Origin: Oligoflexia bacterium
GTDB lineage: Bacteria; Bdellovibrionota; Bdellovibrionia; JABDDW01
Direction: 5' to 3'
Length of the DNA stretch: 64,000 nt
Assembly (NCBI GenBank): GCA_043732305.1
Contig: JAYTHU010000031.1
Span: 23,033-87,032 of the forward strand
Shown here: positions 446-36,190 of the stretch, piece by piece
Layout of the letters: every line of letters starts with the position of its first letter
Numbering within the stretch: the first letter of the stretch is position 1
Translations under genes and position numbers: made by a program
Notes under the pieces: generated by a model
What the model was told of the DNA's origin: nothing
The model's input: only the letters and a program-made list of their open reading frames with translations
Databases searched by the model: none

Positions 446-1276
446 TTATTGACATCTAAAAAATGCGCAGGCGTTTCCGCTAAATTGTCCAAGAGTTCCT
501 GAAGCCACACTGGTTTGACCATTGATGGTGTTGACAGAAGTTTGATTGGTAAACCCAATGGTTCCGCTCAAAGTGTAGTTCACTCCGGATCCTGATAAAG
601 TTCCTATGACGGTGATTGTTCCTTCGCCATCGCTGAACACTAAATTAACTTTATTTCCCTGCACATAAGAACCTTGAGTCTGCAATCCAACATTGACAGG
701 AATTGCAGGAACCACACCACCGCTAGGATCAGCAGTTCCGGTCAATGAATCCCAGAAGCCCATAGTAATACCACCGCTTGAAGGAGCCACTTGCTGATTA
801 GACGCGACAACAGCAGAGAGTGTCTGATTGCTAGTGAAAACCATTGGCGCAGAGCTAGATCCACTAGGATTTGTGCCCATGGTCATTCCCACAACGCAAT
901 TTGAACCGTTGCAAGGAATCTGAGTGTAGCTTGCGGGTGTTCCAAAAATTGCAGAATTCCAATTGGTGTCCGTCGTTGTTGATGTGGCGCCAATAGCACC
1001 CCACGCCCAGTCAGTGCTCAAGAAATAGCGGGAGACGTCGTTGCTGTTCATACTTAAGCCAGGAGCCATGCCAGAGGTGACCTGACCCGAACTGGTGTTC
1101 ACTTGCGCCCATATAGAACTGCTCACTCCACTGGGAGCGGCTGGGACACTGACGCCACCACGGATGTTATTACCGTTGGTGCGACTGGTTGAATTTTTGT
1201 CTTTATTGTTGCTACCGCAGGCCGTGAATAGGAGCGTTGCTGCAACCGATAATGCTACTAATAAATTGTTTCTCAT
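446..1276 (-). CDS. Ser/Thr/Gly-rich lipoprotein, unknown function
   Basis: Likely start MRNNLL at 1276 with a GGAG RBS. Lipobox LFTA-C, beta-rich C-terminal half, ends CAFFRCQ. Confidence 0.75.
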   Translation of the reverse strand: MRNNLLVALSVAATLLFTACGSNNKDKNSTSRTNGNNIRGGVSVPAAPSGVSSSIWAQVNTSSGQVTSGMAPGLSMNSNDVSRYFLSTDWAWGAIGATSTTTDTNWNSAIFGTPASYTQIPCNGSNCVVGMTMGTNPSGSSSAPMVFTSNQTLSAVVASNQQVAPSSGGITMGFWDSLTGTADPSGGVVPAIPVNVGLQTQGSYVQGNKVNLVFSDGEGTITVIGTLSGSGVNYTLSGTIGFTNQTSVNTINGQTSVASGTLGQFSGNACAFFRCQ

Positions 1277-1327
1277 AAATCTCCACTTTGAAAATAGGTC
1301 CATCCGTATTCTCTCAAGTTTATGTAT

Positions 1328-1455: not shown

Positions 1456-3297
1456 TTACCGAGGTGCCAGTAATGACTCGATCCTATTCACGGTGAATTT
1501 CTCCAGCCCCGGTTTGTCTTGCCATTTCTTGTCTGCAAGAATCTCGATGATTATCTCTCGTGCTTGGTTCTTAGTGAGATTTGGTCCACTCCCAAACGAC
1601 ACTTGTGTCAGCATTTTAAACAGAATAATTTGAGCTAAAGAAAACTTCAAATTCTTTGAAGAATCATGGGGTGCAAAAAATACGGTTGGAGCAGCGTGAA
1701 TTTGAAAAGAATAATTCTCTTTTTGAACCACCAACGTTAGCTCATCCAAATAAGATATCATCTCCCTCAACACCGCGACGGGAATCCTCTTATTTTCAAG
1801 GTAACTATCTAATAGTTCAAGTCTGGCAGCTGGACTGACCGGTAATTTCAAAACCTCCATCATTCTATCGAAATGAATTTGTTCTTCCGAACCCATTTTA
1901 AATCGAGGACGAGGTCTCTTATTGGAAACCTGTTGTAGGATTTTCTCAACGGCGAACATTTCTAACTTAGGAACATTCGACCATTTTTTAGTGTTAAAAA
2001 GTTTGCGGGCTATTTCCTGGGCCTCTTCCTTTGACAACGCTCCGTGCGCTCCGGGGATCAAACGCTTCAGCATCTTAAACAAAATCACATCACTATACCC
2101 AAATTTAGAATTGGAACGGGAATGGGGACTTTTGATTGAATAGAATATTGATTCTGGAAACGCAATAGACTGCATAGCTTCATTATCCTTGGCAATTGAG
2201 TCTTTATTCAAAACAGGAATCATTTTCATAAACACCATGACCGGCACGCTCGTAGATTCGACATAACTTTCCAAAACCCCGAGAACACTTTCTAGACTTG
2301 CGGGGGATTCCAAAAGAAAAAGCATGTGATCATAAATTTTTTGGTCCTCGGGGTCCAATTGAGACGAGCGTGGTCCATCTATGCCATTCTCACTGTCCAT
2401 CAAAAAATCGAGATCGATACCTTGTCGAGACGCCGAGATAACCGATTTCATAATTTCAATATCGCTGACTCCGTCGGCCAGTTCCTTGACCTCACTGACT
2501 TTCCCGATAATTGGCGAAAGAGCGTCGATCATCATCACGACCTGCATTTGGAGAGCTTTTAGTTTCTGTATCTCTTTAGTGAAAGTCGCGACAAAAACAT
2601 TTTCGCCCATTGAATTTTGAGTTGCTACCTCCAGAACGCTTTTTCGTTCGGCAATCGTGCTCTGTGTGACCCGAAGCAAAATGTATTCTTCATTCAATTG
2701 GCGAGATATTTCCGGAAATTCAATTTTACACAGGGCAATACTTTGCTTGCAGCCTTTAATTTTATTAGCAATCTCGGTAACGGAAACTTTATAATTCTTG
2801 CTCAGCCCAAGAAAATGGCTCACCGAAGATGGCTTACCGACTGTTAGTTTTTTCTGAAGCTCCGTAGTCAAAGCGGAAACATTCTGCATCCCAAAAAATA
2901 CGGTACGAACCTTCTCCAAGCTTTCTTTATTTCGGTTCAAGGACAGGCCCGTCTGCTGCTTTGAAACTTCCAAAACCAAATCAAAAATCGGCTGATCCCA
3001 ATCTTGCATAAATTCATTAGCCAGATACTGAGGATGAGAAAATCGAGAAGATTCGAGTTTGGACCTAAGACCTTCCACCAAAAAATGTGCAGCTTTCTGG
3101 ATTTCAGAGTCATCCAGACTTTTTATCGTATGTTCGAACTCTGGCAAAGACGAACCGGACTTCAGAGTTTCAAGGATGGATGCGCACCTGTCCCCGAGAG
3201 ACATTTCTTTTGGCGGCTGGGCACGGTGCCCTTCAATCTCAGAAGCCTCAACAAGGCCGGGGATTAAAAAGATAAAAACTAACATAAGAAACTTCAT
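1456..3297 (-). CDS. Secreted array protein A: conserved helical N-module plus two tandem ~145-aa C-terminal repeats
   Basis: Signal peptide MKFLMLVFIFLIPGLVEA; motifs RCASILE, RFSHPQY, CKQSIALC, LNEEY, IDLDFL; duplicated C-terminal domain. Confidence 0.85.
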   Translation of the reverse strand: MKFLMLVFIFLIPGLVEASEIEGHRAQPPKEMSLGDRCASILETLKSGSSLPEFEHTIKSLDDSEIQKAAHFLVEGLRSKLESSRFSHPQYLANEFMQDWDQPIFDLVLEVSKQQTGLSLNRNKESLEKVRTVFFGMQNVSALTTELQKKLTVGKPSSVSHFLGLSKNYKVSVTEIANKIKGCKQSIALCKIEFPEISRQLNEEYILLRVTQSTIAERKSVLEVATQNSMGENVFVATFTKEIQKLKALQMQVVMMIDALSPIIGKVSEVKELADGVSDIEIMKSVISASRQGIDLDFLMDSENGIDGPRSSQLDPEDQKIYDHMLFLLESPASLESVLGVLESYVESTSVPVMVFMKMIPVLNKDSIAKDNEAMQSIAFPESIFYSIKSPHSRSNSKFGYSDVILFKMLKRLIPGAHGALSKEEAQEIARKLFNTKKWSNVPKLEMFAVEKILQQVSNKRPRPRFKMGSEEQIHFDRMMEVLKLPVSPAARLELLDSYLENKRIPVAVLREMISYLDELTLVVQKENYSFQIHAAPTVFFAPHDSSKNLKFSLAQIILFKMLTQVSFGSGPNLTKNQAREIIIEILADKKWQDKPGLEKFTVNRIESLLAPR

Positions 3298-3303
3298 TTT
3301 TCC

Positions 3304-4695
3304 TTACTCCGAAACCAAAGTGTGCAAATGACTGATCACGTATTTTTCCAGACCACCGTAATAAGACCACGTTGAATCGGTCAAAATTTCCCCGGCAATG
3401 ACATGAGCATCCTCTTTAGATATTTTTCTCAAGTCGCTTTGAGTGACACGGCTTAATATTTTTGTAATGACAATGATTTTAAGCGGAAACTTCGAATTGA
3501 CATTCATGAAATTATGGGGAAGGAACTCGGTCGCCGGGTAAACTATTTTTTGGATAAACTGATCATCTCTCCAACTCGAATCATCAAATTTATAGATAAT
3601 AGGTACAATCTCTCTCAGCACATCAATAGAGATAGGAGTGCTATTTGCATAATCCTCGAGAATATTCAGAGCAATCCTGGAAGACGTCGGTGAGCTAAGA
3701 AGGTAAATCATATGATCGAGGATTTGTCTATCACCGAGGCTGATTTTTACCAGACTTAAAGAAGGATTTAATTTAGAATCTCCTTCCACGAGAAAATCCA
3801 GATCCAACCCTTGCGAAGAGGCACTGATCACTGATTTTACAATTTCACTCTCGTTCACGGCATCCGCCCGCTCTTTAATTTCCCGAACTTTTCCTAAGAT
3901 CTGAGAAAGTCCACCAGTCATAGCGGAAACTTGCAACTGTTGAATCCCCAGCTTTTCTAGCTCTCGTTTGAAAGACTCAACTAAGATTTTCTCACTCGTC
4001 TGTTCCATAGCCTCCCTTAAAATTCGTTCTCGCTCGACCATTAAACTGGAGGTAGCTTGCAGCAAAATATATTCTTCATTCAAATCTTGAACAATGGCGG
4101 AAAATTTAATTTTGCAAAGACCAATGGTTTTCCGGCACCCGCTAATTTTCTTAGCGAGTACCAAAACCTTAAGTTTATAGTCCGGTGATAACCAACGGCT
4201 GAGCTTGAAAACCGACGGCTTTCCCTCAGCTAAAATATTCTGTAACTTTCCCACAAGCAATCCGATGCTTTGGGTTCCATAAAGGGCGGCGTTGGCTCTC
4301 GCCATACTTTCTTTATACCGAGAAACATCAAGACCGATTTTCTGCTTTGAAATCGCCAGTACAAGATCAAAAACTGACTGATTCCAGTTCGCGAGGACTT
4401 CACTGGCTAAATGCTGCGGATGAGAGAAACGTGAAGTGGAGATTTTTTCTTTTACTGCCATCACCAATTTTGAAGCTTCTTCCCGAAGAGTGGCTTCTCC
4501 TAAATCACCCAATTTAGTTTCAAGTTCCAAAACTGTGGATCTATTTTCAAGCGCCTCTAGGACGCTGACGCAGCGAGTATGCAGATCAGAAGACTCCTGT
4601 GTTTTTTCTTCAGATAAAGATCCATGGAGTTCGGATGCCCTAGCGAAATTAGTCATACAAAAAATAAAAACTATAATAAATAATAAATATTTCAT
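3304..4695 (-). CDS. Secreted array protein B: conserved N-module plus one copy of the C-terminal repeat
   Basis: Signal peptide; motifs RCVSVLE, RFSHPQH, CRKTIGLC, LNEEY, LDLDFL; clearly paralogous to 1456-3297. Confidence 0.85.
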   Translation of the reverse strand: MKYLLFIIVFIFCMTNFARASELHGSLSEEKTQESSDLHTRCVSVLEALENRSTVLELETKLGDLGEATLREEASKLVMAVKEKISTSRFSHPQHLASEVLANWNQSVFDLVLAISKQKIGLDVSRYKESMARANAALYGTQSIGLLVGKLQNILAEGKPSVFKLSRWLSPDYKLKVLVLAKKISGCRKTIGLCKIKFSAIVQDLNEEYILLQATSSLMVERERILREAMEQTSEKILVESFKRELEKLGIQQLQVSAMTGGLSQILGKVREIKERADAVNESEIVKSVISASSQGLDLDFLVEGDSKLNPSLSLVKISLGDRQILDHMIYLLSSPTSSRIALNILEDYANSTPISIDVLREIVPIIYKFDDSSWRDDQFIQKIVYPATEFLPHNFMNVNSKFPLKIIVITKILSRVTQSDLRKISKEDAHVIAGEILTDSTWSYYGGLEKYVISHLHTLVSE

Positions 4696-6101
4696 TTTAT
4701 AACTCCACGCACAGAGGCAATTCCCGAGTTCTGAAGAGCAACTTTTCGGAGGCCACAGCCAGACTTCAAGGCAAAAAACTCCCCGTTCGAATACAACTGG
4801 GTCTCAAGCTTTTTATAAAGCTCCAGATGCCCGTCTGAAGTGAGACTCATTTTTTTCGCCATCTGGCTGAGAGTTTTTGCGGAGAGCGTTTCACCTTGAA
4901 ACAAAATCAATTTTTTTGATGCCATGTAAGGAATGACAAATTTCAAATAATACTTATAGTTTTGGGAACCGTCGAAAACTCTTCTCACCTTATAAATTTC
5001 TTGTTGTGGGGCGGATTTTGCATAGATAAATATTGATCCCGTGAAAGGTTTAACCGCTTTGAGAAGAAACAAAAGGCTTTCGAGAGAAATGAATTTCATT
5101 ACTTCAATCTCTGCGAGAATCATGTCTCCTATTTCATCGTTAGAAAGTTCCGAATGAATAGCGCGCGCCACCTTCAATTTGAACTGCTCCTGTTGATCCA
5201 AATCCGTGTCTGTACGACTCGGAGACAAAGTCACGTCGTTTTCACCGATTAAAAATCCTAAATCAAAACCTTGAGATGCCGCTTCCATCACCGTTTTATG
5301 AGTAGATCCTGTTTGAAAAATATCAGCCTGAGACATGACGTGGGAGATCTTGTCGATGGTCTCAGCCAGCTTTTCAGTTTTAATTTGCAATAAAGTTTTC
5401 TGCATGCCAAGCCTTTCGAGCTCAGTCTCAAGAATCCTTAAAAGCCCTGGGTGAGAAGTTATTTTCTTGGCCGCGACAAGAATCTTCATCTCATCAGAAA
5501 ATGTCATTTTTACGGCGTTGAGAAAAATCAGATCGGAATTGATTTGCTTTGATATGGAAGGCAAATCCAGTTGGCATTGGGCGAGAGATTTTTTACACAG
5601 GGCCGCTTTGCGGGCTAGGTCTTTGATTTTATTTGAATGGGTGCTTTTCAACATCAAAAATCTCCGCCCGCGGGAAATGGCCTTCTGAAGTTCATCAAGA
5701 ACTATGGTCACATTCCTTGATCCGTAAAGGAGATTTTTCGCATTGGTCAGAGCCGGAGCTTCAAGCAGTTGCCCCGCCCCAAGATAACGTTTAGAAATAG
5801 AATTCAGAAGTTCATTCAAGTCCGAGTGATTTTCGGCCATACCCTCGCGCAAGACGTGCACTGGCTGGGAAAGGGAATGATCCGTCAGACTTTTTTCTAA
5901 GTGAGAAATGAGATCTCGACTCTCCGCTCCAATCTTCTCGTCGCTCAACGGATGAAATTCTTTTTCCAAATCGTGATTTCTATTTTGGCTCAGATTTTCA
6001 AGTAAGAGTCCACAGCGAAGAGAAAGATCACCGGCATTTAAAAACGGAGAGAATAGAAAGACTAGTTCTAGAAAAAGTAGACCTATAATTTTCGATCTCA
6101 T
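4692..6101 (-). CDS. Secreted array protein C: conserved N-module plus distinct C-terminal domain
   Basis: Signal peptide; motifs RCGLLLE, LSQPVH, CKKSLAQC, FDLGFL; ATGA overlaps with both neighbours. Confidence 0.85.
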   Translation of the reverse strand: MRSKIIGLLFLELVFLFSPFLNAGDLSLRCGLLLENLSQNRNHDLEKEFHPLSDEKIGAESRDLISHLEKSLTDHSLSQPVHVLREGMAENHSDLNELLNSISKRYLGAGQLLEAPALTNAKNLLYGSRNVTIVLDELQKAISRGRRFLMLKSTHSNKIKDLARKAALCKKSLAQCQLDLPSISKQINSDLIFLNAVKMTFSDEMKILVAAKKITSHPGLLRILETELERLGMQKTLLQIKTEKLAETIDKISHVMSQADIFQTGSTHKTVMEAASQGFDLGFLIGENDVTLSPSRTDTDLDQQEQFKLKVARAIHSELSNDEIGDMILAEIEVMKFISLESLLFLLKAVKPFTGSIFIYAKSAPQQEIYKVRRVFDGSQNYKYYLKFVIPYMASKKLILFQGETLSAKTLSQMAKKMSLTSDGHLELYKKLETQLYSNGEFFALKSGCGLRKVALQNSGIASVRGVIK

Positions 6102-7954
6102 TCCGTCCTCAAAATGGCTTCGCTTACAAGCTGATCCACAACTTCACTTATCTTTGCGTCTCGCTCTGGATCAAGATGAACCCCTCTAGAAAGAGCTGTT
6201 CTTTCTATCACTTTCTTAAGATTTTCCCTCGCTGTAGTTTCAAATTCAGAAATGTTATCTTGCCCAAGGATTTGAACATGGCGCAAACCCACTACCGCAA
6301 AAAATATACTCGCATTGAATGCCTGTTTTTCGTGACTCATTCCTATCGCATTATAAATACTGTCAGGAATTTGCGCGTATGTGTCCACCCAATTCACAGA
6401 TTGGTTCTTGCGAGAAAAAAGAAGCGTCGACAGAGAAAGGTACTGCGCAATGGTGATGCGACGATTTTCCTTGAACAAATGAGTCCAAATTCTCGAGGCA
6501 ATACGGCTTGCAGAAATCTGACTCAGATAGGTTGTTTCCATTTCTTTTTTAATTCCCACGAGATAATCAGAAACACCTAAATCAACCAAAGGCTCAAGCA
6601 GTCCTCGAAGTGACTGATTCAATGCGAGGCCCAATTTGTCATTTTTATGATGGGACAAAACATAACCGATGAACTTTGGAATTTTCGATGCGAAAACAGG
6701 ATCTTCAAAAAGAAGGTTGAATCCCTGAAAGAGAACTCTTTGATCCGTGTTTTCGAGAAGATTAGTGGCCATTGTGCCGAATAAATGACTAGCCAAAAGT
6801 TCATCATCTTCACTGTTGGCAGCAAACTTTTCCACTCTAAGCATGGTTTCAGCAACCAAACGTGTATCTAACCACTTCACAGAAAGAAGAGCAGTGAGTT
6901 GTAAAAAATCTGCATTTTCCTGGAGCTTTTCCACTGCATGACCATAAGCTGCAGATGTGAGGGGCAATGATTTTAAAAGATTCCATGACTCTTCTTTTAT
7001 ACCCCAAATACTTACACTTTTTTGTTCGCGCCTATGCCACTCCATTTTCCATTCGATAGGCTCCACGTCATCTTCTCGCGGCACTAGAAGAGGCTGGAGA
7101 TCCACGGGCACTTTCAGTGATTGGGCTTTGATAATCAAACGGTGGCTAAACTCAACCCTGGATTCCCGAGCGTTACTGCCCACTTGATCGGCGGTAATAA
7201 TTATTTTTTCTAAAGTCTCACTCATAATCAAAAAATAGGACTCAAGCTTAGCTATCTCTAGCCTTTTGTTATTTAGCGCCGTTATCACGGAACTTTGAGG
7301 GAAAGTAGATGGCAACCAGTCAGATAGATTTTCCAAAAGGAGATCTAAAATTTTAACTTGATCTTGCAGTAACGACTCCACATTTTTGACCGTCGCGAAC
7401 TCCTGATTGAGATTTTCAATAATTGTTTTAAGCTCTTTTGAACAATGGTTGATCGATACCCGACACTCTCTCACTCGAGCGACTTGTTTGAGAAGTTCCT
7501 GCTTTTTTTTCTCGATGTTGAATCGAGCGCGACCGTATTGATCGATCCTTACATCTAAACTATTCAAAAGTTTCTGTTCGCTGTCCACACCAAAGAGAAG
7601 CGTTTCTAATTCTTCTAACTTTTTAGGCTTAGAGTTTGTGTTTTGAGAAACTTGTCTTTGGCTCACTGCTCGTACCATTTCTAAAAGAGGTTCAAAATGA
7701 TCTTGAAGCCGAGTTTGAATTTGAAAATACGGACTAGAGAATTTTTCTTTTTCTAATGCAAAAACTAAATCCTTCACTAATTTTTCATAGACTTGTTTCT
7801 GGTCCACAGGTTGGGATGCCTTGAATTCCAAAACTTTTTCAAGCTCAAGGATACATGGTTGTGCATTGATAAAGGTGGGAGAAGAAGTAACTGCTGAAAA
7901 AGCGTTGCCACCTAGAAAAAAAACGGGAAACACTAAAGATAAAAACACTTTCAT
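6098..7954 (-). CDS. Secreted array protein D
   Basis: Signal peptide; motifs PCILELE, KFSSPYF, KPKKLEELETLLFG, CRVSINHC, LNQEF, VDLQPL. Confidence 0.85.
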   Translation of the reverse strand: MKVFLSLVFPVFFLGGNAFSAVTSSPTFINAQPCILELEKVLEFKASQPVDQKQVYEKLVKDLVFALEKEKFSSPYFQIQTRLQDHFEPLLEMVRAVSQRQVSQNTNSKPKKLEELETLLFGVDSEQKLLNSLDVRIDQYGRARFNIEKKKQELLKQVARVRECRVSINHCSKELKTIIENLNQEFATVKNVESLLQDQVKILDLLLENLSDWLPSTFPQSSVITALNNKRLEIAKLESYFLIMSETLEKIIITADQVGSNARESRVEFSHRLIIKAQSLKVPVDLQPLLVPREDDVEPIEWKMEWHRREQKSVSIWGIKEESWNLLKSLPLTSAAYGHAVEKLQENADFLQLTALLSVKWLDTRLVAETMLRVEKFAANSEDDELLASHLFGTMATNLLENTDQRVLFQGFNLLFEDPVFASKIPKFIGYVLSHHKNDKLGLALNQSLRGLLEPLVDLGVSDYLVGIKKEMETTYLSQISASRIASRIWTHLFKENRRITIAQYLSLSTLLFSRKNQSVNWVDTYAQIPDSIYNAIGMSHEKQAFNASIFFAVVGLRHVQILGQDNISEFETTARENLKKVIERTALSRGVHLDPERDAKISEVVDQLVSEAILRTE

Positions 7955-9867
7955 TAATTTAACTGCCCCACCGTTCTATTCAGGAGATTGTCTATGTATT
8001 TTTCGACTCCCAGCTGATAGGATTGACTGGATCTCTTGTGACCGGGCATATGCTGAAGCACGATTCTCAACAGACGAGCATGCGCACGCTTTCTAAAATT
8101 AGGAATATTATCCATGCTCAGAATTTGAATCTTACTCAGTGCTTTTACGGCAAAAAATATTATTGGATTGAGCCTGACGTAACCATCCCCTTGGAATGGC
8201 CCATAAAATTCTTTGGGTAGAACTTTAAGTTCATCGTTGCTCCAACCTCCCGGACAGAGATCCCAGACAGAGGTTGCTCCGTGATTTACCGATACTTCTA
8301 AAAGTTTGAAATAATCTTCTGCAACCAAACGAGTCTTAGGATCGTTCAAATAATCCCACATCAGCTTGACTTCAAGATCTCGCGAGTCAGTGCCTTCTCC
8401 CGCAAGCTCGCCCATCCTCTGCATAAAATTAAAATCAACCATCACCGTGGGTCCCAGCATGAGGGCTTGTGTGATAATCAGGCGGGCTCGATCCGCGGTG
8501 CCCACTGGGTGCAGTTCACCCAGGAAAAGTGGAATCTGCCCGAGGACATCTCCCTGGAAAAGCCCACTGAACCGGCTGTGAATCCAATCATTCTCCATAC
8601 GGTGATTGAGACGTGACATAAGAAAGTCCACGGCAAGTTTTCCTCGAGCCTTAAATATCACGTCTTTGGATTTGAGAAAGCCTTCGATTGCACGAACAAT
8701 CTGCAGAAGGTCAGGTGCTCCGCCAATGTTTAAGGAAAATAATTCTATTTTCCTCATGAGACTTTCCGTCTGACCTAATTCATCAGCCAATATTTTAAAT
8801 TGCCGGCTGTTTAAGGGAAGCTTCAATAAAACCTGCCACGAAGGGTATTTATCATCCCAAACAGCACTCTCCATGTTGTCTTCGCTAGCGGCTATGTTCG
8901 CTGGCTTGTCGGGTCCCGGTAAAAACTGGTCTAAATTTATATTTATATCCCAATAAGTTGATTTCAGTTCATCCCGCTCTTTCAAGATAAAATTGAGATC
9001 AATGGCCGGTGACTCCGAACCAGCGCGGATGATAGCCCTTTGAATCCCTTCTATTTGGGTTGAGCCTGCGTGGCTTGCGGACTGATCTGCTCCGATCATG
9101 ATTTTTTCAATGGCGTCAGCCATCAATGTGAAATAACTCACCGATTGACCGAGCTCTTGAATCTTATTTGAAATAGCTTTCTTGACAGAATCACTTCCCG
9201 ATTTCACAGGCAACCAGTCATTGGTATTCGAGAGGACAAGTTCGAGAATTTTCGTTTCATCTTCCAAAACACTGAGCACGGTTTTTACAATTTTATATTC
9301 GGCGTTCATTTCTGAAAGCAGAACGGTCACATCAGTAGTGCATTTCTTAATGGCAGCACGGCATGCTTTCAATTTGTTCCCGGCATCTACAACCGCTCTT
9401 ACCCTATCGGCTATTTTCTCGCCCGTTGTTTTGAATGAAATCAGCCCCCCCTTCCGCTTAGCACTGAGGGTATTATTTAATTGCTCGAGTAATTTCAACT
9501 CCGTGTTTGTTCCAAAAAGAAGGGTTTCCAATTCTTCCAGAGCCTTGGGCTTTGTCGTCGAACTATTAGAAATTTGTCGGAGACTCACTTCCAGCGCAAG
9601 TTCAATGATGGGTTTTAGATATTCGCTCAAACTATTTTGAATGACAAAATAACTACTGGAAAAAAAATCACTTTTGAGAGCCGCTTCGAGCTGCTTTTGT
9701 AAAATAGAATATCTAATCTCGATCGACTCACCATTGTTTTTGACGATGCTTTCAAGAGACGCTTTGCATGGGGGCCGGCTGAGCTCGGCACTTTTAGCGC
9801 AGGAAATCCAAAGGCACCCTGCCAGAAATGCCATTGCCAAAATAAAAGGCTTTTTGTCCCCGCTCAA
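7954..9867 (-). CDS. Secreted array protein E (closest paralogue of D)
   Basis: Signal peptide; motifs PCKASLE, FFSSSYF, KPKALEELETLLFG, CRAAIKKC, MNAEY, IDLNFI; C-terminal IFFAVxxLxxxQILxxDNI shared with D. Confidence 0.85.
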   Translation of the reverse strand: MSGDKKPFILAMAFLAGCLWISCAKSAELSRPPCKASLESIVKNNGESIEIRYSILQKQLEAALKSDFFSSSYFVIQNSLSEYLKPIIELALEVSLRQISNSSTTKPKALEELETLLFGTNTELKLLEQLNNTLSAKRKGGLISFKTTGEKIADRVRAVVDAGNKLKACRAAIKKCTTDVTVLLSEMNAEYKIVKTVLSVLEDETKILELVLSNTNDWLPVKSGSDSVKKAISNKIQELGQSVSYFTLMADAIEKIMIGADQSASHAGSTQIEGIQRAIIRAGSESPAIDLNFILKERDELKSTYWDININLDQFLPGPDKPANIAASEDNMESAVWDDKYPSWQVLLKLPLNSRQFKILADELGQTESLMRKIELFSLNIGGAPDLLQIVRAIEGFLKSKDVIFKARGKLAVDFLMSRLNHRMENDWIHSRFSGLFQGDVLGQIPLFLGELHPVGTADRARLIITQALMLGPTVMVDFNFMQRMGELAGEGTDSRDLEVKLMWDYLNDPKTRLVAEDYFKLLEVSVNHGATSVWDLCPGGWSNDELKVLPKEFYGPFQGDGYVRLNPIIFFAVKALSKIQILSMDNIPNFRKRAHARLLRIVLQHMPGHKRSSQSYQLGVEKYIDNLLNRTVGQLN

Positions 9868-9884
9868 TTCTTCCCACCCTGATC

Positions 9885-11780
9885 TTATAATTTAGTTTTT
9901 GCTATATTTTCGAGCTCTGAAGTGCAGTCCGCTCCATCCATGGTTCCGCCCACACTACGACTCACTAAATTTTGAGCTTCAATGGCCGCAGAATTGAGAC
10001 GGCCCATCGCGATAAAACTCTTACTTGCTTCTATTTCCATGCGGGCTTTTTCAGAGATAATAAAGTCGGCCGTTTCCTTGATTGTCTCGGCGCTGAAGTA
10101 TGCCGTGGTATTGATCTCAATGATCATGTCATTGGCGCGCGCGACTTCAACTCGCAATTGTTTCAAACCTGCCTCTTGAGTGGCTCGCACCGCTTTGTTT
10201 GTACCTACGGCCATTTCTAAAGTGGAGTTGGTGTTTTTGATCATTTCCAAGGTGGTAAAAATAGGCATGCCATTTCTCACGTTAGCGATGTCTTCTCTTA
10301 CAAAATAAATAGTGTCTAGCTGTTTGGCCATAGCTTCACCTATGAGTTCCATAGCTGAGGCCTGACTCAAACCCGCATTGAGACGGTTTCTGAGCTTCTG
10401 GCCCACATATGAAATCACGGCTTTCTCATCTTCAAAACGTCCATTGAGATGAAATTCTTCAACGACTCTGGCGATTTCATCGTCGACGAGTTTCCCGAGA
10501 GCTACTTTCATTTTCAAATCTTGGAGGTATCCAGACATCTCATGAAGAGTCGTGATGATTTGCACGCCACTTTCCTTCAATGTTTTAGAGTTGCTCAGCA
10601 ATACATTGTCGACACTCGTGATGCCTTGGCGGTGACTCAACAGTGCCAAACGATCTTTCTTAGGTTTAACGGCGGAAGTCAATTTTCGTTTCACGTAGCC
10701 TGGATTAGGAGCTGCCGAAAGTTTTCCATGCCATCGTTCACGTATCGTGGATTTCCCCACTTCATGCCCCATGCTCTGAAGAAGGTAAGACAAGTCCTTG
10801 ATGTTTTGAAGAGATTTTAATTGGGTGTCGTTGATAGCAATATATTGTTTCGAGTTGCGATCTAAAATCTTATTGTTATTCAAGAAGCGTGTGGCCTGCT
10901 CGGAAGAAGCACTCAACTCACTTTCTAACGTTTGCATATTTTCTTGGCGGATTTGCGTTCGCCCCTCGGGAGATAATGTTTTTTCAATAAGTTCTAGAGC
11001 CAGCTCCTTAGCTTTTTTAGTGAGAGCGTCTGCGGAAACTCTGCTCATACGAACTTCAAGAGGCTTGGTTTCGCCCTCACCATTTTTATAATCACCAAGC
11101 AAGATTGTTCGAGTTTGATTTCGAGCGTAGAAAATTTCATCCACGCCATCACGTCTGCGAGAAGCGGCGTCTATCTCCTCGATTTCAAAAAGAATGCCGT
11201 CTCCGTTGGACAAAATATCTTTCGCATACTTCAAGAGACTAGCAGCAGGAATTTGCTGAGTGAGTCCTTGCCGAAGCACATCAAAATACATTTTTAAATT
11301 TACTAGAGAATCCGCATTTAATTTTCCCGGAGCAGTGGTCGTCACTAAAGTCACGAGATCTCTTAAACTGGGATCAGATGTCAATTGAGAGATATCAAAG
11401 GAACCAAGAGTCGCCAGAATCTCAAGTCTGATTTGGTTGACGTCAATGACTTTTGAATCTTTGGTTTCTTGAGCCACAATTGTTTGCAGGGCGGTGCTTA
11501 CTGCAGGAAGTTTGTCACCAATCACGGCGATGGAAGATATCGCTTCGGGACTAAGTTTGTATTGAGTTTTTCCACTCTTAAATCTTTCTTGCAGCCGTCG
11601 AGTGATTTCCGCAATCATGCTAGTTTGCACTACCTCAGTTTGCATTGCCTCCAATTGCCCGTGTTTATAGCTTGGCAGCTGAGTTGTAGTCACCTGACCG
11701 CCGGCAAAAGCAAGACTGCTCACCAATAAAAGGCTCAATGATTTTCCAAGAAGTTTGAGAAAAAAATTATTCTTTTGCAT
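9885..11780 (-). CDS. Signal-peptide-bearing TelA/KlaA (toxic anion resistance)-like helical protein, first gene of the leftward operon
   Basis: Start MQKNNFF at 11780 with a GGAGGG RBS; signal peptide ...LLLVSSLAFA. The C-terminal ~370 aa follow the TelA pattern by eye (LSPE..., SEQATRFL, ITSVDNVLLSNSKTLK, ALGKLVDDEI, QKLRNRLNAGLSQ, AYFSAETIKE). Confidence 0.6.
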   Translation of the reverse strand: MQKNNFFLKLLGKSLSLLLVSSLAFAGGQVTTTQLPSYKHGQLEAMQTEVVQTSMIAEITRRLQERFKSGKTQYKLSPEAISSIAVIGDKLPAVSTALQTIVAQETKDSKVIDVNQIRLEILATLGSFDISQLTSDPSLRDLVTLVTTTAPGKLNADSLVNLKMYFDVLRQGLTQQIPAASLLKYAKDILSNGDGILFEIEEIDAASRRRDGVDEIFYARNQTRTILLGDYKNGEGETKPLEVRMSRVSADALTKKAKELALELIEKTLSPEGRTQIRQENMQTLESELSASSEQATRFLNNNKILDRNSKQYIAINDTQLKSLQNIKDLSYLLQSMGHEVGKSTIRERWHGKLSAAPNPGYVKRKLTSAVKPKKDRLALLSHRQGITSVDNVLLSNSKTLKESGVQIITTLHEMSGYLQDLKMKVALGKLVDDEIARVVEEFHLNGRFEDEKAVISYVGQKLRNRLNAGLSQASAMELIGEAMAKQLDTIYFVREDIANVRNGMPIFTTLEMIKNTNSTLEMAVGTNKAVRATQEAGLKQLRVEVARANDMIIEINTTAYFSAETIKETADFIISEKARMEIEASKSFIAMGRLNSAAIEAQNLVSRSVGGTMDGADCTSELENIAKTKL

Positions 11781-11865
11781 ACTAGAAATCCCCTCCATAA
11801 AAGTACTTCATCCATCTTAACGCAATGCGTAAATAAATTTAAATTGTTTCTGCTAACCGCCACAC

Positions 11866-11881
11866 TGCAATTTCTAAGCCC
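11866..11881 (-). promoter_or_regulatory. sigma54 (-24/-12) promoter for the leftward six-gene operon
   Basis: Minus strand GGGCTTAGAAATTGCA = GG-N10-GC with TTGCA. Confidence 0.55.
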
Positions 11882-11882
11882 A

Positions 11883-11898
11883 CGGAACGCAACTTGCA
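11883..11898 (+). promoter_or_regulatory. sigma54 (-24/-12) promoter for the rightward two-gene operon
   Basis: CGGAACGCAACTTGCA = GG-N10-GC, close to TGGCACG-N4-TTGCA. Confidence 0.6.
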
Positions 11899-11910
11899 GT
11901 TGTTAATTTT

Positions 11911-13812
11911 ATGACCTTATTTTTTTTAAACACAGGCGGGTTCAATGATCATCGCCGTGGAAAAAGAACTCGACCCTACCCGAAAAGCGGGAATTTTTTT
12001 CAGGAGAAAAAAAGCGGAGCCATTCTATTCGTTTTACTAACTTCGCTATGTTCGTTTCTCGTAACTGGTGCAAGTCAGGCTCAAGAAGTCACCTCATTAA
12101 CCATCAGTGATGCCTGTCAGGCTATCTTGAAAACCCTAAAGGCAACGTCCAACCCGCATGAAAAAGACTCCGTCAATTACACTCCTATCAATGATCAGCA
12201 AATCGTGGATGGAGGAAAATCAATATCCAGCGTGCTTGCTGCCGCCCTGAGGGAAGATTTTCTCTCAAGTCCCAAATACATCATGCACGAACATCTCACA
12301 GAATTTTTGGAACCTGCCATGGATTTGGCTAGAGAAGTGAGCGCAAGGCAATTGGTCGGCCAAACCAGAGAAAAACCAAAAAGCATTCTAGAGATAGAAA
12401 CTCATCTTTATGGAAATAAAAGTTTAACGGCGAAGATTGAGGAAGCTGAACTGGCTCTCGACAAGCTTCAGAAAAAAAGTATTTTTCGCAAAAAAGCGAC
12501 AGAGGAGGTATTTAAAATTGCGAATGAAATTTTATCCTGTCGCACTGCCATTCAATCTTGCAAGCTTGATATCAAAGGGACTCTCATTCAACTGAACCAC
12601 GAGTACCGCCTGTCCCATGCTGTTGAACTTATTTTGACCGATCACTTAAAAATCCTCGAGAATCTTCAAGGACGTCACACCGAAACATCAATTCAGACAG
12701 TGATAGAAATTAAAAAAGCGGAGTTGAATAGACTGCTGGCGATTTTCAAAGCGGTTTCTACGCAGATTGAATCAGTCATTGAAGTCGGACATACCGTGGT
12801 GAAAGATGCGGACCAGCTTTCATCCGATAGAATTTCGCAACTCGTGATCAATGCCGCCAAGCAAAGTCCTTCCTTAGATTTGACGTATCTAAATCCGGAG
12901 ACTGAAGAAGAAGTACAAGAAAAACTTGATCCCGGAGTGATCTTCAAAGATCCCGCGACGGCGGCTCTGCAAAAACTGATTGACCTCACAACTTCCGATA
13001 TAGGCATACGCGAAACCCTATTGAATAAAATTTATCCTCAGATCTACACACCCTCTGGATACTCTTGGATGGTGAGGTACAAAACCCGGAAAGCCCTTGA
13101 TCGAATAAAAAATCAAATTAACATTGGCGGTAAAATCAACATCTACCTTCTTCCATCAGTGATGGAGATTCTTGTGGAATCTTTGGAAACTCTTGATGAG
13201 CCAGCACTTTTTGCGATCTTGTTAGACCCGGACATTGACCTGCCTGGGTCTCTGCCACAGCTTTTTTCAGCAATCACTCAGCACCCTAAGGCAAAGAAAA
13301 TACAAAACATTTTGCCCAGTTTTTTAGCCGGCAAAACCAGTTGGACAAGGAGCCGTGATTTTAGTGATCAGGTGACGGAGATTTCGAATTACTCCATCGG
13401 AGATCGGTCAAAACTTGATTCACTGGAGATTCTCATACGTAAATCGACGACCATATCACAAGACGAGTTTCTGCTTTTGGCAGCGAAAACTCCTTCTAAC
13501 GTTCCCTGGGGCCTCCCAACCGATGTTTACCTTAAAGGAAAACTCACCGCCTATGGTTTCGCGAAGCGAGATCTGATGGCAATACACATCAAGATAGAAT
13601 TTAATATCATTTTTGATGCTCTCGAAAAAGTCTCAATCAGAGATATTGAGTCAAAACAAAATTGGGAAAGGAAGGTCATTGGAATACTCACCACCCGGTT
13701 AAGGGCAGCCTATCCAGATGACAATTTTCCTAAAGAGGTGACGTTGGTTACGGCTTTGGACAATTTGCTCTTGAGAGCCATGCAATATTCCAGCAAAAGG
13801 TGTTACGAGTGA
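11911..13812 (+). CDS. Secreted array protein F (divergently transcribed paralogue)
   Basis: Hydrophobic signal ...ILFVLLTSLCSFLVTGASQA; motifs ACQAILK, FLSSPKY, KPKSILEIETHLYG, CRTAIQSC, LNHEY, LDLTYL. Start position uncertain. Confidence 0.8.
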   Translation: MTLFFLNTGGFNDHRRGKRTRPYPKSGNFFQEKKSGAILFVLLTSLCSFLVTGASQAQEVTSLTISDACQAILKTLKATSNPHEKDSVNYTPINDQQIVDGGKSISSVLAAALREDFLSSPKYIMHEHLTEFLEPAMDLAREVSARQLVGQTREKPKSILEIETHLYGNKSLTAKIEEAELALDKLQKKSIFRKKATEEVFKIANEILSCRTAIQSCKLDIKGTLIQLNHEYRLSHAVELILTDHLKILENLQGRHTETSIQTVIEIKKAELNRLLAIFKAVSTQIESVIEVGHTVVKDADQLSSDRISQLVINAAKQSPSLDLTYLNPETEEEVQEKLDPGVIFKDPATAALQKLIDLTTSDIGIRETLLNKIYPQIYTPSGYSWMVRYKTRKALDRIKNQINIGGKINIYLLPSVMEILVESLETLDEPALFAILLDPDIDLPGSLPQLFSAITQHPKAKKIQNILPSFLAGKTSWTRSRDFSDQVTEISNYSIGDRSKLDSLEILIRKSTTISQDEFLLLAAKTPSNVPWGLPTDVYLKGKLTAYGFAKRDLMAIHIKIEFNIIFDALEKVSIRDIESKQNWERKVIGILTTRLRAAYPDDNFPKEVTLVTALDNLLLRAMQYSSKRCYE

Positions 13813-16751
13813 AACCGAAATTTTCTGCTTCCACATTTCTAATTTTCGATTTTTTAATCTTCGCAACTCTTTTAAGCTTCGGCTTATGTTCAAGCTTAGG
13901 CTTTGGCGCCGAGCTTTTACGTTTCCCTTTCCAAGACGGAAGAAAAATTCTGGTGACTCAGGGTGATTCGGGCGTTCACGTTTCTTATGTCAGAAAAATA
14001 GATTCTTCGAATACAATCAGCAGCGCAGGCAAAGAAGTGGAAATAGAATTTCTCACTTTGCCAGAGCTAACGGGTTTTTCAGTCTTTAATAATTCCGACG
14101 TTTCAAATCACATTCCGAAAGAAATCAAAGCTTATAAAGTTGTTCAATCCAAAAAGTCGAACTTTGAGTTTAAAAACTGGTTGATCCTATCGGATAAAAC
14201 CCATGGCTATTTTATACGGCAACATAGTTTTTCTGGAAATAGCAAAATCCCTCTGGTGGTTTTTAAATTCAAAATGCCAAGCGACGTCAAAATGATTTCA
14301 TCAAGTTATGGGATGGGACCGGAAGGATCGCGATTTCTATATTTTATTTCTGTCGATGGAAAAACAGCCAAAACTATGGTTTTTAGTCCAGAAGAGGGAG
14401 ACCAACCACTCAAATTAATTCCTCAATTTGTAGATCTTGGAAATATTCAGGAGCCGGTTTTCCAAATTGTTGGCGATGAAATCGTTTGGAAAGAACGATA
14501 TCTGAAAAAATATAATTTCGACCTTCCTGAAATCAAAGACATTAAAACAGGGAATTCAAAAAACAATCCCATGGGTGATATTGAGAATTCTCAGGCGAAT
14601 TTGCAAAACACCGCCCGCATGGCTCATGAAGCTGCCACGGAATTATCCAAACCTGCGAACCAAAGAATGAAATCCGCAGAACGGACCCAGAATTTCAATC
14701 ATTCTCTTGCCACACCTGATGCTGATGTTGAATACAAAGGCCTTCATTACAAAATTGAAGAGTCACTTGAAGGAGTCGAAATTGTCAGGCTCAAAGATCT
14801 TAAAAGCCTCACTGTAAGCAAAGGAAGCTATAACTCAACTCATATTTTAGATGGCGGAATACTGAAATTTTCGGATATCTCTCGAGAAATATCTCTAGAT
14901 CACTTTGATGCCGAATGTGCCTTCATGCCCACTGGAAACAATCCCCAAGAAGTAAAGTTCATGGAAGGAACTTATGAAAACTTTAGAAAGACCGGATCAA
15001 TAAATCTCGTTCTTCCTGATTCGCGAAAAGAACTGGTCAGACAGGCGGTAAAACGCATGCTCGGTGAAAAGAAAAACAGCCTGCTTCTGACTGAAGGTTT
15101 TGGAGATCGAAAGTTCATTGTTCAAAATATAGTTCAGGCCTTGCCACCCACCTGGCGCGTGCTTACGCTTTCACCGGGACCACTCTCTAAAGACATCAAC
15201 TACTCGGGAAAAATTCAGGAAAACGTTTCCCATATTTTGGAAGCGGCAAAGACGACGCCTCTGGTTTTGGTGGCCGAAGACTTTCATATCTACAAAGGTT
15301 TGGGATCTACTGGTGGCAATCAAACTGATGTGCTTGAACTGATCCGTGATGCGGTCTTGAGTGGCCAACTGCGGTTGATTGCACTCTCCGGAGAGGAATT
15401 TAACGAGCGTGTTCATGATCCTGCTTGGGACCGAGCCCTTTTTAAAATTCCCCTTACTGATTTGAGTCAGGTAGAAGTTTTTGAATTCTTAAAAAATCTT
15501 TGGGCGGTAGATGGAAAAGGACTTCCACTTCCGAGCGCCAAAACTCTAAATAAAATAATCGATGTTGCGGGGAAATTCAATGTGACTGAAGAAGACCCCG
15601 CCCGCTCCGCCGATTTCATGGCTGCATACATTTCAGAATTGAGCGAGACAACGTCTCCATCCATCGACGTGAACGATGAAGTTTCTCTTTTGAAATCAGC
15701 TAAAGATTTCTATCGACTAGATCCTTCACTGATTGATCCAAAAATTTTATTCTCTAAAGTTCAGAACTTTATTCCTAAGGTTCGCGATTACGGTCTCATG
15801 GGGCATGATCATGTGATTGCAGCGGCAAAAAAAATGATTGCAAACTCCCTTTCTGGCGCATCACTTGATCCCGGGCCTGGATTTATTATGTACGTGGATG
15901 GTCCACCCGGCGTTGGAAAAACCGAAATGGCTAAGAGTTTTGCTTCGGCCATGGATTGGAACATCAAAAGAATTGTCATGCACCAGGCAATGACCTCAGA
16001 CACTCTGCTTGAAAATCTTTATCGCGCACTGAAAAAAAATCCACACTCTCTGATTTTTCTCGACGAGATAGAAAAAGCATCTCCCGACACTCTCAAGGGA
16101 CTTCTTCAAACCATGGACAATGAGTACTTCAACGTGGATATGGAGATTGGCGACAAACAAAAACGCACGGTGCGCGCGTCTACTAAACATGCGAAGTTTA
16201 TGCTCGCTGGAAATGTACTGGGCGAAGCAATCTCCCATTGGTGGCATGATCATCCGGAATATATTAACTCTCTCACACCACCTCATATGCAATTCATAAA
16301 GGACATGGGCGGCGAAGAACGTTTGCGGCAACTATTGATTCAAGAAGGTCTTCCGTCCCCGCTCATTGATAGGGCCTACGTGACTTATGCTTTTCCGCCG
16401 ACACGAGAACAGATAAAAGGTTTCCTCACTTTTAAGATCAACCTGATGATAAAAATATTTGAAAAAAACAATGATCGAAAATTAGTCTTCACTGGTCTTG
16501 AAAAATACATTGAAGATGTGACTGATTTTGCTATTCGGGAAAAGCTTGGACCAAGATCCATTTTGCGCGCCACCACGGGCTCTAATGGAGATTTCGCAAG
16601 CATTCTGGCAAACCTTGCAAGCACGTACGCTGCGGCACCGGGGAGTCATGACGGGCCGGTGAAGCTTCGATTCGATGAAAAAAGAACGGATCCCACCCAC
16701 GACTGCCAAAATATTTTGGCAGAAATGGAAAATGAGATCCGAGAAAACTAA
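13809..16751 (+). CDS. Signal-peptide-bearing ClpA/ClpB-like double AAA+ protein with degenerate first ring
   Basis: Probable GTG start overlapping the upstream stop (GTGA); hydrophobic N-terminus. D2 has GPPGVGKT and LIFLDEIEKA. D1 has TEGFGDRK at the Walker A position and VAEDFHIYKGLGS at the Walker B position. Confidence 0.8.
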   Translation: MKPKFSASTFLIFDFLIFATLLSFGLCSSLGFGAELLRFPFQDGRKILVTQGDSGVHVSYVRKIDSSNTISSAGKEVEIEFLTLPELTGFSVFNNSDVSNHIPKEIKAYKVVQSKKSNFEFKNWLILSDKTHGYFIRQHSFSGNSKIPLVVFKFKMPSDVKMISSSYGMGPEGSRFLYFISVDGKTAKTMVFSPEEGDQPLKLIPQFVDLGNIQEPVFQIVGDEIVWKERYLKKYNFDLPEIKDIKTGNSKNNPMGDIENSQANLQNTARMAHEAATELSKPANQRMKSAERTQNFNHSLATPDADVEYKGLHYKIEESLEGVEIVRLKDLKSLTVSKGSYNSTHILDGGILKFSDISREISLDHFDAECAFMPTGNNPQEVKFMEGTYENFRKTGSINLVLPDSRKELVRQAVKRMLGEKKNSLLLTEGFGDRKFIVQNIVQALPPTWRVLTLSPGPLSKDINYSGKIQENVSHILEAAKTTPLVLVAEDFHIYKGLGSTGGNQTDVLELIRDAVLSGQLRLIALSGEEFNERVHDPAWDRALFKIPLTDLSQVEVFEFLKNLWAVDGKGLPLPSAKTLNKIIDVAGKFNVTEEDPARSADFMAAYISELSETTSPSIDVNDEVSLLKSAKDFYRLDPSLIDPKILFSKVQNFIPKVRDYGLMGHDHVIAAAKKMIANSLSGASLDPGPGFIMYVDGPPGVGKTEMAKSFASAMDWNIKRIVMHQAMTSDTLLENLYRALKKNPHSLIFLDEIEKASPDTLKGLLQTMDNEYFNVDMEIGDKQKRTVRASTKHAKFMLAGNVLGEAISHWWHDHPEYINSLTPPHMQFIKDMGGEERLRQLLIQEGLPSPLIDRAYVTYAFPPTREQIKGFLTFKINLMIKIFEKNNDRKLVFTGLEKYIEDVTDFAIREKLGPRSILRATTGSNGDFASILANLASTYAAAPGSHDGPVKLRFDEKRTDPTHDCQNILAEMENEIREN

Positions 16752-32145: not shown

Positions 32146-32407
32146 GACTTCTCTTTATTTTCACCAAGCGCGCGGAGAGATTTTCTTCACGAGCTTTGAA
32201 AATGGCATTGGCAATTCCGCCCTGCTTTTGAATTGTCTTGATTCCGTTAGCAGAAATCTTCAAAGTGATCGAACGCCCGATCTCTTCAATGATATATCTC
32301 TTGTGAGTGATATTTGGCAGCCAACGCGTTCTATTTTTATTGTTCGCGTGACTGACCAAGTTTCCTGATCTGGGACCGATACCGGTAAGTTCACAAAATT
32401 GAGACAT
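32114..32407 (-). CDS. rpmB: 50S ribosomal protein L28
   Basis: CELTG, GNLVSHANNKNRTRWLPN. Confidence 0.95.
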   Translation of the reverse strand: MSQFCELTGIGPRSGNLVSHANNKNRTRWLPNITHKRYIIEEIGRSITLKISANGIKTIQKQGGIANAIFKAREENLSARLVKIKRSLEKRKKPSIK

Positions 32408-32961
32408 TATTCAGCTCCTCGTTGATGACCACCACCGAAACCACCACCGCCGTGTCCACCACGGTCTCCACGATCGCCTCTATCATGCCCGCCGCCAAAT
32501 CCACCGCCGCCGCCACGATCAAAACCGCCGCCACCGCCGCGATCTCCACCGTCACGGCCGCCGCCGAAACCGCCGCGACTTCCGCGATCACGATAGCTGC
32601 TTTGTTGTTCTTCGTAGTTGATATATTTTGTTCCAACAGGAAGAAGTGCAAGTGTGCGAGCACGTTTAATGTGCACTTTTAATGATCTTTGTTGTTTAGC
32701 ACTCAGTCGGCTCACACGAGCAGGAATAATTTTTCCATGTTCGGTAACAAACGGTCTGAGACTTTCAGGATCTTTGTAATCGAAAACCAAATCGACTGCG
32801 GGACGTGGTCGTCCTCGGCGTCCTCCGCCTCGGAATCCTCCGCCTTTTTCATCGCCACCGTCACGGCCGCCACCATCGCGTCCGCCACCGTCACGACCAC
32901 CAGCACTTCGGTCAGAACCGTGTGCGCCTCTTGAATCTCTAGTTTCTCTTTGTTCTCTCAT
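32407..32961 (-). CDS. rpsR: 30S ribosomal protein S18 with Gly/Arg/Asp-rich N- and C-terminal extensions
   Basis: DYKD...[14 protein letters not shown]...QQR...[11 protein letters not shown] core flanked by GGRDGG repeats. Confidence 0.93.
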
Positions 32962-34987: not shown

Positions 34988-35003
34988 TGGCCCTGCTATT
35001 GCA
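34988..35003 (+). promoter_or_regulatory. sigma54 promoter for the secreted protein at 35058
   Basis: TGGCCCTGCTATTGCA = GG-N10-GC. Confidence 0.6.
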
Positions 35004-35720: not shown

Positions 35721-36190
35721 CAAGTGTAACCACCAGGATTTTTCTGCAGGTAATCCTGGTGATAGGTTTCGGCAGAATAAAACTGTTCGGCGGGAATAAT
35801 TTCAGTCACAATCGGCCTTGACCAGCGTCCGGAATCTTGAACTTCTTTCTTTTTATTTTCGGCGACGGTTTTCTGATCTTCGTTTTGGTAAAAAATTATT
35901 GAACGATATTGTGAGCCCATGTCATTGCCCTGTTGATTCTTGGTAGTGGGGTCATGCATGCGGAAGAAAAAATCTAAGATTGCTTCAAATTTAGTTTGCG
36001 TGGGATCAAACTCTATTTCAATAGATTCGGCGTGACCGGTTTTCCCAGTCTTGACTTCTTCATAGCGGGGATACTTTGTGGTTCCGCCGCAATAGCCAAC
36101 CTCAGTTTCAATCACTCCAGGGATTTTTCGAATGATATCTTCCATCCCCCAGAAGCATCCACCGGCTAAAACAGCAACTTCAGTTTTCAT
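35702..36190 (-). CDS. msrA: Peptide-methionine (S)-S-oxide reductase
   Basis: GGCFWG, GHAE, HDPT, QGNDMGSQYRS, AETYHQDY. Confidence 0.95.
   Translation of the reverse strand: MKTEVAVLAGGCFWGMEDIIRKIPGVIETEVGYCGGTTKYPRYEEVKTGKTGHAESIEIEFDPTQTKFEAILDFFFRMHDPTTKNQQGNDMGSQYRSIIFYQNEDQKTVAENKKKEVQDSGRWSRPIVTEIIPAEQFYSAETYHQDYLQKNPGGYTCHFLRG

Follow-up and report, generated by a model that had tools for sequence, protein, structure and literature searches.

A predicted exported TelA-domain protein encoded with modular paralogues and a Clp-derived ATPase in an Oligoflexia bacterium

Introduction

What would a Clp-type ATPase do outside the cytoplasm, encoded beside a TelA-like protein and a set of modular secreted paralogues? 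TelA and Clp ATPases are normally cytoplasmic, and the periplasm is not an ATP-rich compartment. A preliminary description of the locus analysed here, made from the DNA letters, had proposed a co-regulated exported apparatus of an architecture that it did not recognise. We followed up its claims computationally. The window is the whole 64,000-nt stretch that was analysed (G000:C31:23033-87032, in which G000 denotes the source genome), and we infer predation by the source organism from its class. A review treats two steps at the feeding junction of Bdellovibrio-type predators, the delivery of enzymes into prey and the early disruption and opening of the prey inner membrane, as still lacking an explanation (PMC12428579, in part).

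Results

Layout of the locus and promoter motifs

The eight large ORFs, named A, B, C, D, E, T, F, and K, lie where the preliminary description had placed them, six on the minus strand and two on the plus strand, in two divergent, tightly packed operons (Table 1). Adjacent ORFs of an operon either overlap, by 1-13 nt, or are separated by 6 or 17 nt. The gap from which the two operons diverge, previously given as about 130 bp, measures 112 nt, or 130 nt if T begins at its second ATG (11780), the start matched by its 631-aa database form (P0001). The G+C content of the locus is the same as that of the remaining window.

Table 1. Coordinates of the features of the locus, numbered from the first letter of the window.
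Feature	Coordinates	Strand	Description
Paralogue A	1456..3297	-	613 aa; signal-like leader with tag C38 behind it, helical module common to A-F, internally duplicated head also present in B
Paralogue B	3304..4695	-	463 aa; leader, tag C42, module, single copy of A-type head
Paralogue C	4692..6101	-	469 aa; leader containing one Glu, tag C30, module, own head
Paralogue D	6098..7954	-	618 aa; leader, tag C34, module, E-related head
Paralogue E	7954..9867	-	637 aa; leader, tag C34, module, D-related head
T	9885..11798	-	637 aa (631 from ATG 11780); leader, N-domain of ~220 aa outside known families, complete TelA domain, C-terminal tag C625 (sole Cys)
TelA-aligned part of T	9972..10772	-	profile-profile alignment with canonical TelA, 247 columns, probability 96.5%, E 7e-10
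Sigma54-type -24/-12 motif toward the six-gene operon	11867..11880	-	GG-N8-TTGC
Sigma54-type -24/-12 motif toward the two-gene operon	11884..11897	+	GG-N8-TTGC
Paralogue F	11911..13812	+	633 aa; leader behind a long basic N-region, tag C69, own head; module modelled by AlphaFold (pLDDT 89)
K	13800..16751	+	983 aa; leader, N-region of ~370 aa outside known families, first AAA+ module degenerate, second intact but lacking its pore loop, tag C969 at the C-terminus
Walker A of the second AAA+ module of K, intact	15900..15923	+	residues 701-708

A sigma54 promoter carries GG and GC at -24 and -12, 10 nt apart, and both of the motifs claimed for the gap fit this consensus, standing back to back. The loose pattern occurs near chance in the window (44 found against a mean of 34 expected, with 44 or more in 7 of 100 shuffles). 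The plus-strand motif ends just 13 nt before the ATG at 11911, implying that the true start of F is uncertain. A motif of this type also stands upstream of T in two further genomes, G066 and G228; it was absent at five sites examined in G229, G230, and G286, and ahead of the first module gene of G066.

A Ser/Thr/Gly/Asn-rich, lipoprotein-like ORF (446-1303, minus strand), 152 nt downstream of paralogue A, showed no likeness to the eight proteins by BLASTP and was excluded from the gene set. Farther along are a ribosomal protein S18-like ORF with long Gly/Arg-rich tails (32407-32961, minus strand) and a Lon-like stand-alone AAA protein with a signal-like leader (54447-55607, plus strand), the latter preceded by a sigma54-type motif at 54405-54418. 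Two more leader-bearing, C-terminally tagged proteins without a Pfam family are encoded at 35058-35720 (plus strand) and 36180-37142 (minus strand), and a sigma54-type motif lies ahead of the former at 34989-35002.

Predicted export leaders

The N-terminal signal-like sequences noted previously were recovered in all eight proteins with a hydropathy script, whose rule gave at least two false calls among 40 proteins. Each protein has a basic N-region, a short hydrophobic core, and an AxA-like site, with no later transmembrane segment; the highest 19-residue hydropathy of the mature proteins is 1.04-1.58. Homologues carry such leaders as well. We predict that the eight proteins bear type I Sec signal peptides.

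Were the hydrophobic N-terminal stretches uncleaved anchors, the proteins would face the predator cytoplasm, where ATP is available, and the ATP paradox would disappear. The basic N-region ahead of the leader of F is indeed unusually long, and the leader calls rest on a hydropathy rule. We nevertheless regard anchoring as very improbable, because each of the eight leaders is a short stretch behind basic residues that closes with an AxA-like site, and because 48 of the 53 module family members with an intact N-terminus have a leader. By the positive-inside rule, a basic N-terminus places the rest of the protein outside, and the invariant cysteines likewise argue against anchors.

T and the TelA family

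The likeness of T to TelA was upheld through its homologues, although T of the window itself gave no TelA match in Pfam. A profile of the paralogue module led to a locus in G066 with T and K homologues, from which a two-sequence T profile was made. The T homologue in G286 matched Pfam PF05816 (E 5e-6, profile positions 36-327 of 332) with 30.9 bits against a cut-off of 30. Its C-terminal part gave feature matches of 0.94-0.95 in the Atlas, 24 of 30 of them within TelA-bearing clusters, and its best named Atlas match was a putative toxic anion resistance protein. A six-sequence T profile was then aligned with 13 canonical TelA proteins by HH comparison (Table 1). By way of these homologues, a full-length TelA domain can be assigned to T.

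A signal-like leader opens each of the six T proteins, and each also has an extra N-domain, which is not a second TelA copy. The canonical TelA proteins of four relatives are leaderless, and three of the four were seen behind an SPFH-type gene. No XpaC or SPFH partner gene was found near T among nine window proteins scanned with Pfam.

Other searches with T returned little. There was no match to window T in the Atlas, nothing significant for the T profile among PDB sequences, and no match to T in plasmids or metagenome contigs. Three word-index protein searches, made with T, with the alignment of the paralogues, and with that of T, each gave just a window protein; since relatives exist, these blanks are uninformative. 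The single-sequence AlphaFold model of T (pLDDT 40) was unusable. A complex prediction pairing the T TelA domain with the E module scored 0.05, which is uninformative either way.

In one study and a meeting abstract, TelA is tied to membranes and envelope stress: TelA genes are reported to protect against envelope-active compounds in Listeria and, with XpaC, to affect membrane lipid domains in Enterococcus (PMC12791056, in part; PMC6811118). The mechanism of TelA itself is described as not known (PMC12791056, in part).

K, a Clp-derived ATPase

ClpA was the best NCBIfam match of K (E 1.6e-18), with 66 bits where the cut-off is 993, and TssH scored lower, in agreement with the ClpA/B-type AAA+ assignment made before. 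We aligned five K proteins with two ClpA proteins and the ClpB of the source genome. The Walker A lysine and the arginine finger of the first ring were gone in 5/5 K proteins. The second ring retained Walker A, Walker B, sensor 1, the arginine finger, and sensor 2 in all five, and its GYVG pore loop was deleted in all five. A Clp N-domain was not matched in K (Pfam), and the ClpP-binding IGL/F loop was absent from the alignment. The dead first ring and the missing pore loop of the second indicate that K is no standard unfoldase. From these residues, K is a Clp-derived ATPase whose second ring is predicted to be active and whose first ring is predicted to be dead.

The full N-region of K occurs in the same six of 390 class genomes as T and in no other, in a search for which five of the six K sequences were part of the query. 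Three further genomes matched only its last 60-80 residues; two of these partial matches are stand-alone Clp-like genes, one of them with a leader, an intact first-ring Walker A, and the tag. The N-region profile gave nothing significant among PDB sequences. The best named match of the K profile was in a Bdellovibrionaceae assembly (L039, E 8e-62), suggesting a place for the source organism among Bdellovibrio relatives.

The source genome encodes a second leader-bearing Clp-like ATPase (L188, G000:C62:32457-35108), with an intact first ring, a deleted second-ring pore loop, and a C-terminal tag, and stand-alone genes resembling it occur in G041 and G139. Such stand-alone genes suggest that leader-bearing Clp ATPases form a wider family, of which the T-linked branch is the one with the dead first ring.

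The shared module of the six paralogues

Six paralogues with a common N-module and variable C-termini had been claimed, and 13 of the 15 pairs among A-F indeed matched by BLASTP over residues ~30-320, a module of ~270 aa (E 9e-7 to 3e-106). No seventh copy was found in the source genome; G066 has at least seven copies, G228 at least six, and G089 at least four. A module profile gave 70 matches among 1.84 billion cluster representatives; the module family, as profiled, is a small one of no known name. Of 69 module proteins, 67 retain a C-x6-C pair. The heads among the matches fall into 32 unrelated groups. Pfam recognised an FGE-sulfatase-like head in 2 of 55 scanned relatives and none in the six window paralogues. 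In each of G229, G230, and G286, one distant module member lies downstream of T (HH 81%, E 1.2e-5).

AlphaFold gave a confident, long helical bundle for the module (pLDDT 89), for which no specific structural relative emerged. Foldseek against the PDB and viral libraries returned nothing at E 0.001 or better, the module profile gave nothing significant among PDB sequences, and the best VIA match was to syntaxin-type bundles (Z 11.8).

Several secreted long-helix paralogues in one operon would also fit a multi-component helical pore-forming toxin of the ClyA type, formed by T and the paralogues and directed against prey membranes, and AhlC did appear in the fold search of the module (Z 8.6, rmsd 3.5, 163 aligned). 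That score is, however, below the Z of ~13 that the fold tool itself gives for ordinary helical bundles, and syntaxin and spectrin-type bundles scored higher. The absence of Foldseek matches at E 0.001 or better and the lack of any mature 19-residue hydropathy window above 1.58 also count against such a toxin. Toxins of the ClyA type are, moreover, not known to include a dedicated ATPase. A toxin of this kind appears very unlikely.

A relationship between the module and TelA is suggested by a collinear alignment of their N-terminal halves, which scored 31.0 against 18.9 for the reversed sequence and at most 18.2 in 25 block shuffles. The HH probability of 10-23% is weak, yet it exceeded all 26 controls. 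No canonical TelA was recognised among the 70 module-profile matches, 55 of which were scanned with Pfam. Since the weak collinear alignment stands above its controls, each paralogue may plausibly combine a shortened TelA stalk, represented by the module, with a new head.

In the viral fold search of the module, a phage TelA ranked sixth (E 0.035, TM 0.22). A 378-aa fold match from a Yersinia jumbo phage (L209:57-2442) was not counted: an equally long, conserved gene of no family precedes the TelA gene there, with matches in 74 phage records, and the match could equally belong to either gene. We also set aside weak module matches in G194, G209, and G352 (E 1e-4 to 5e-4, fewer than 90 positions) as likely chance.

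Co-occurrence of the three gene types

T was found with the two-sequence profile in 6 of 390 class genomes. The three gene types occur together in the source genome and five others; the search of a phylum sample gave G000 and G066 only (2/401). T and K lie at most about 4 kb apart in five genomes. In G229 they are on separate short contigs, on which the other genes follow the order of G230. All six T genomes have at least one module gene. Because the six belong to three families, four of them to one genus, they amount to about three independent cases. Five other genomes of the source organism's own family gave no match to T, K, or the module.

Each of the five T genomes other than the source genome encodes, next to T, a leader-bearing protein of ~960-1016 aa without a Pfam family (L011:15746-18610, L020:16382-19432, L022:3337-6249, L023:3246-6125, and L024:2786-5719), for which no counterpart was found in G000. 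A leader-bearing, C-terminally tagged ABC1 kinase is encoded near T and K in G066 and G228 (L011:6762-9056 and L020:12765-15137). The locus of G286, G230, and G229 includes a second paralogous secreted family of ~270-310 aa (L023:8105-11804, L024:10552-11370, L024:15152-15970, and L223:2893-3708).

It is conceivable that T and K alone form a linked pair and that the six paralogues are independent tagged, sigma54-driven secreted proteins, duplicated in tandem beside them, without any eight-part machine. Module genes do occur without a T or K orthologue found in G089, and in G228 they are scattered over six contigs, unlinked; moreover, the copy number varies from one to at least seven, and the heads are unrelated. 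Against this stand the module gene next to T or within 4 kb of it in five of the six T genomes, spanning three lineages and three gene orders, the presence of module genes in all six, and the sharing of both operons by the paralogues, T, and K here. We judge independent paralogues to be unlikely. The co-regulated exported apparatus of the preliminary description thus stood in its leaders, its co-occurrence, and its TelA and Clp assignments, but was weakened by the paralogues without T and K in G089 and their scatter in G228. The gene set is real, conserved, and apparently undescribed.

A cysteine tag and a wider class of exported proteins

Absent from the preliminary description were a cysteine tag common to the eight proteins, the defects of K in its first ring and its pore loop, and a larger tagged class. 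The sequence C-x-x-x-L is present in all eight proteins, just behind the leader in A-F and near the C-terminus in T and K. The tag was kept in 46 of the 53 module family members with an intact N-terminus and at the C-terminus of 5/5 aligned K proteins; in G066 it takes the form C-x-x-F-Y. T has its end-tag only in the source genome, the other five homologues lacking it at the end.

Across the source genome, 91 of 651 predicted non-lipoprotein exported proteins carry the tag pattern at an end, a rate about twice the cytoplasmic one, so that part of the 91 is due to chance. Among predicted exported proteins longer than 250 aa with a single Cys (n = 84), the Cys is at an end in 35 (11.9 expected), as against 10 of 63 in the cytoplasmic single-Cys control (10.7 expected). 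Leu at +4 follows in 27/35 of the proteins with terminal Cys and 6/49 of those with internal Cys. Upstream sigma54 motifs are commoner for tagged first genes (23/61) than for untagged (45/350) or cytoplasmic ones (26/710) (Fisher p 1.6e-5). By these counts, tagged proteins form a predicted exported class that is spread over the genome and enriched for sigma54 motifs.

We compared 43 hand-picked tagged proteins (39 from the 91 strict cases and 4 from a looser list) with 40 random untagged exported ones. Pfam families were matched by 19 of the tagged proteins, including a PrkA/YeaH/SpoVR-type set and a DnaJ domain, and by 25 of the untagged proteins, mostly ordinary envelope families, with two false leader calls. 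Families dependent on ATP or aminoacyl-tRNA account for 8/43 tagged proteins (an ABC1 kinase, PrkA, SelO, two ATP-grasp proteins, two AAA proteins, and a Leu/Phe transferase; two of the eight matches are below the Pfam cut-off) and for 2/40 untagged ones, in raw counts; both of the latter have a Cys just behind the leader. Solute-binding proteins, porins, secretins, and penicillin-binding proteins, which are common among the 40 untagged proteins, number 0/43 among the tagged.

Individual members of this kind include three adjacent large genes (L174, L169, and L172; G000:C50:1270-12292), all with leader and tag, whose products are a PrkA-type AAA protein, a protein of 1804 aa without a family, and a SpoVR/DUF444/vWA fusion. 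They make up a predicted exported version of a gene set that usually belongs to the cytoplasm. Two leader-bearing proteins (L175, G000:C102:36808-39201; L263, G000:C239:1470-2924) match Leu/Phe-tRNA protein transferase weakly, an enzyme that needs charged tRNA. Also leader-bearing in the source genome are a SelO-like protein, an ABC1 kinase/M48 fusion, two ATP-grasp proteins, and DnaJ and MoxR-type proteins (L179, L170, L184, L185, L205, and L226).

Discussion

An exported ATPase is useless without ATP, and the locus together with the tagged class therefore points to delivery into an ATP-containing compartment. Because the tagged class includes enzymes that require ATP or charged tRNA, the prey cytoplasm is the simplest destination. 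We propose, with a probability of roughly 40%, that the locus encodes a tagged module that is driven by sigma54, exported, and passed into prey, where it would form a TelA-type membrane assembly with exchangeable heads remodelled by K. Sigma54 would switch on both operons, and Sec would export the eight proteins. A second, tag-dependent step would then take the class to a place containing ATP, most simply the prey cytoplasm at the feeding site. There, T would co-assemble with the paralogues on the prey membrane, the module serving as a shortened TelA-like stalk that bears exchangeable heads. The second ring of K would dismantle these T/paralogue assemblies or seed them without threading a chain, with the first ring as a structural element.

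After export, the module might instead stay in the periplasm of the predator or at the feeding junction and serve there, in the manner of cytoplasmic TelA, to scaffold the envelope or shield it from stress, either with ATP leaked from opened prey or with K as a nucleotide-gated ring. The envelope protection ascribed to TelA in Listeria and its lipid-domain effect with XpaC in Enterococcus fit such a role, as does the C-x6-C pair of the module proteins, which suits an oxidising compartment. The feeding pole of an epibiotic predator has, moreover, been proposed to reach the prey cytosol directly (excerpted text of PMC12428579). Two observations argue otherwise: the tagged class contains aminoacyl-tRNA- and ATP-requiring enzymes and none of the typical envelope families common among untagged proteins, and the relatives retain a separate cytoplasmic TelA with an SPFH partner. 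Action in the envelope seems to us unlikely.

Beyond the tagged module proposed for this locus, a broader scheme can be put forward tentatively, and we hold it to be doubtful as a whole. Bdellovibrio-type predators would deliver a Cys-tagged, Sec-exported class of proteins, ATP-driven machines included, into the prey cytoplasm through an undescribed second step; the locus would then supply one such machine, a TelA polymer that is exported, carries interchangeable heads, and either attacks the prey inner membrane or reorganises it, while a Clp ATPase devoid of a pore loop cycles the polymer on prey ATP. For the study of delivery, the locus offers a short tag, a promoter class, and named cargo. 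If the proposal is true, T would be the first exported form of TelA, a widespread family, and one accompanied by a naturally occurring series of modular relatives. Even with the proteins confined to the predator envelope, an assembly that depends on ATP outside the cytoplasm would be out of the ordinary.

Comparison with known systems

No described system matched the architecture, as the preliminary description had supposed, and no description of an exported TelA or of the gene set was found in a body of literature that covered few subscription journals. T, like the TelA/YaaN/KlaA proteins (PF05816), has a complete TelA domain. Canonical TelA proteins have no leader and are encoded beside XpaC (PF10112) or SPFH genes, whereas T combines a leader with an additional N-domain and has an ATPase as its neighbour. 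T is, by its domain, a member of the TelA family, but not by its predicted location or its partners.

The paralogues resemble LXG-type polymorphic carriers in layout: the helical N-module is conserved while the C-terminal heads vary, a genome has several copies, and there is a helical partner protein. They differ from these carriers in having Sec-type leaders and no known toxin domain in the heads, and the tight packing of the ORFs leaves no room for immunity genes between them.

K shares with ClpA and ClpB (Hsp100) two AAA+ modules in Clp order, the second intact. It departs from them in its dead first ring, deleted GYVG loop, missing ClpP-binding loop, unrelated N-region, export leader, and C-terminal tag. 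ClpV/TssH, NSF, Vps4, and the torsins offer analogies, in that the ATPase is encoded with the assembly it would serve. NSF, as K is predicted to do, combines one working ring with one structural ring, and the torsin of the endoplasmic reticulum is likewise a relative of the second Clp ring with a signal peptide and without a pore loop. K keeps its own arginine finger, and ClpV, NSF, and Vps4 thread substrates via the pore loops that K lacks. By analogy with these proteins, K would work at best like a dedicated remodelling ATPase.
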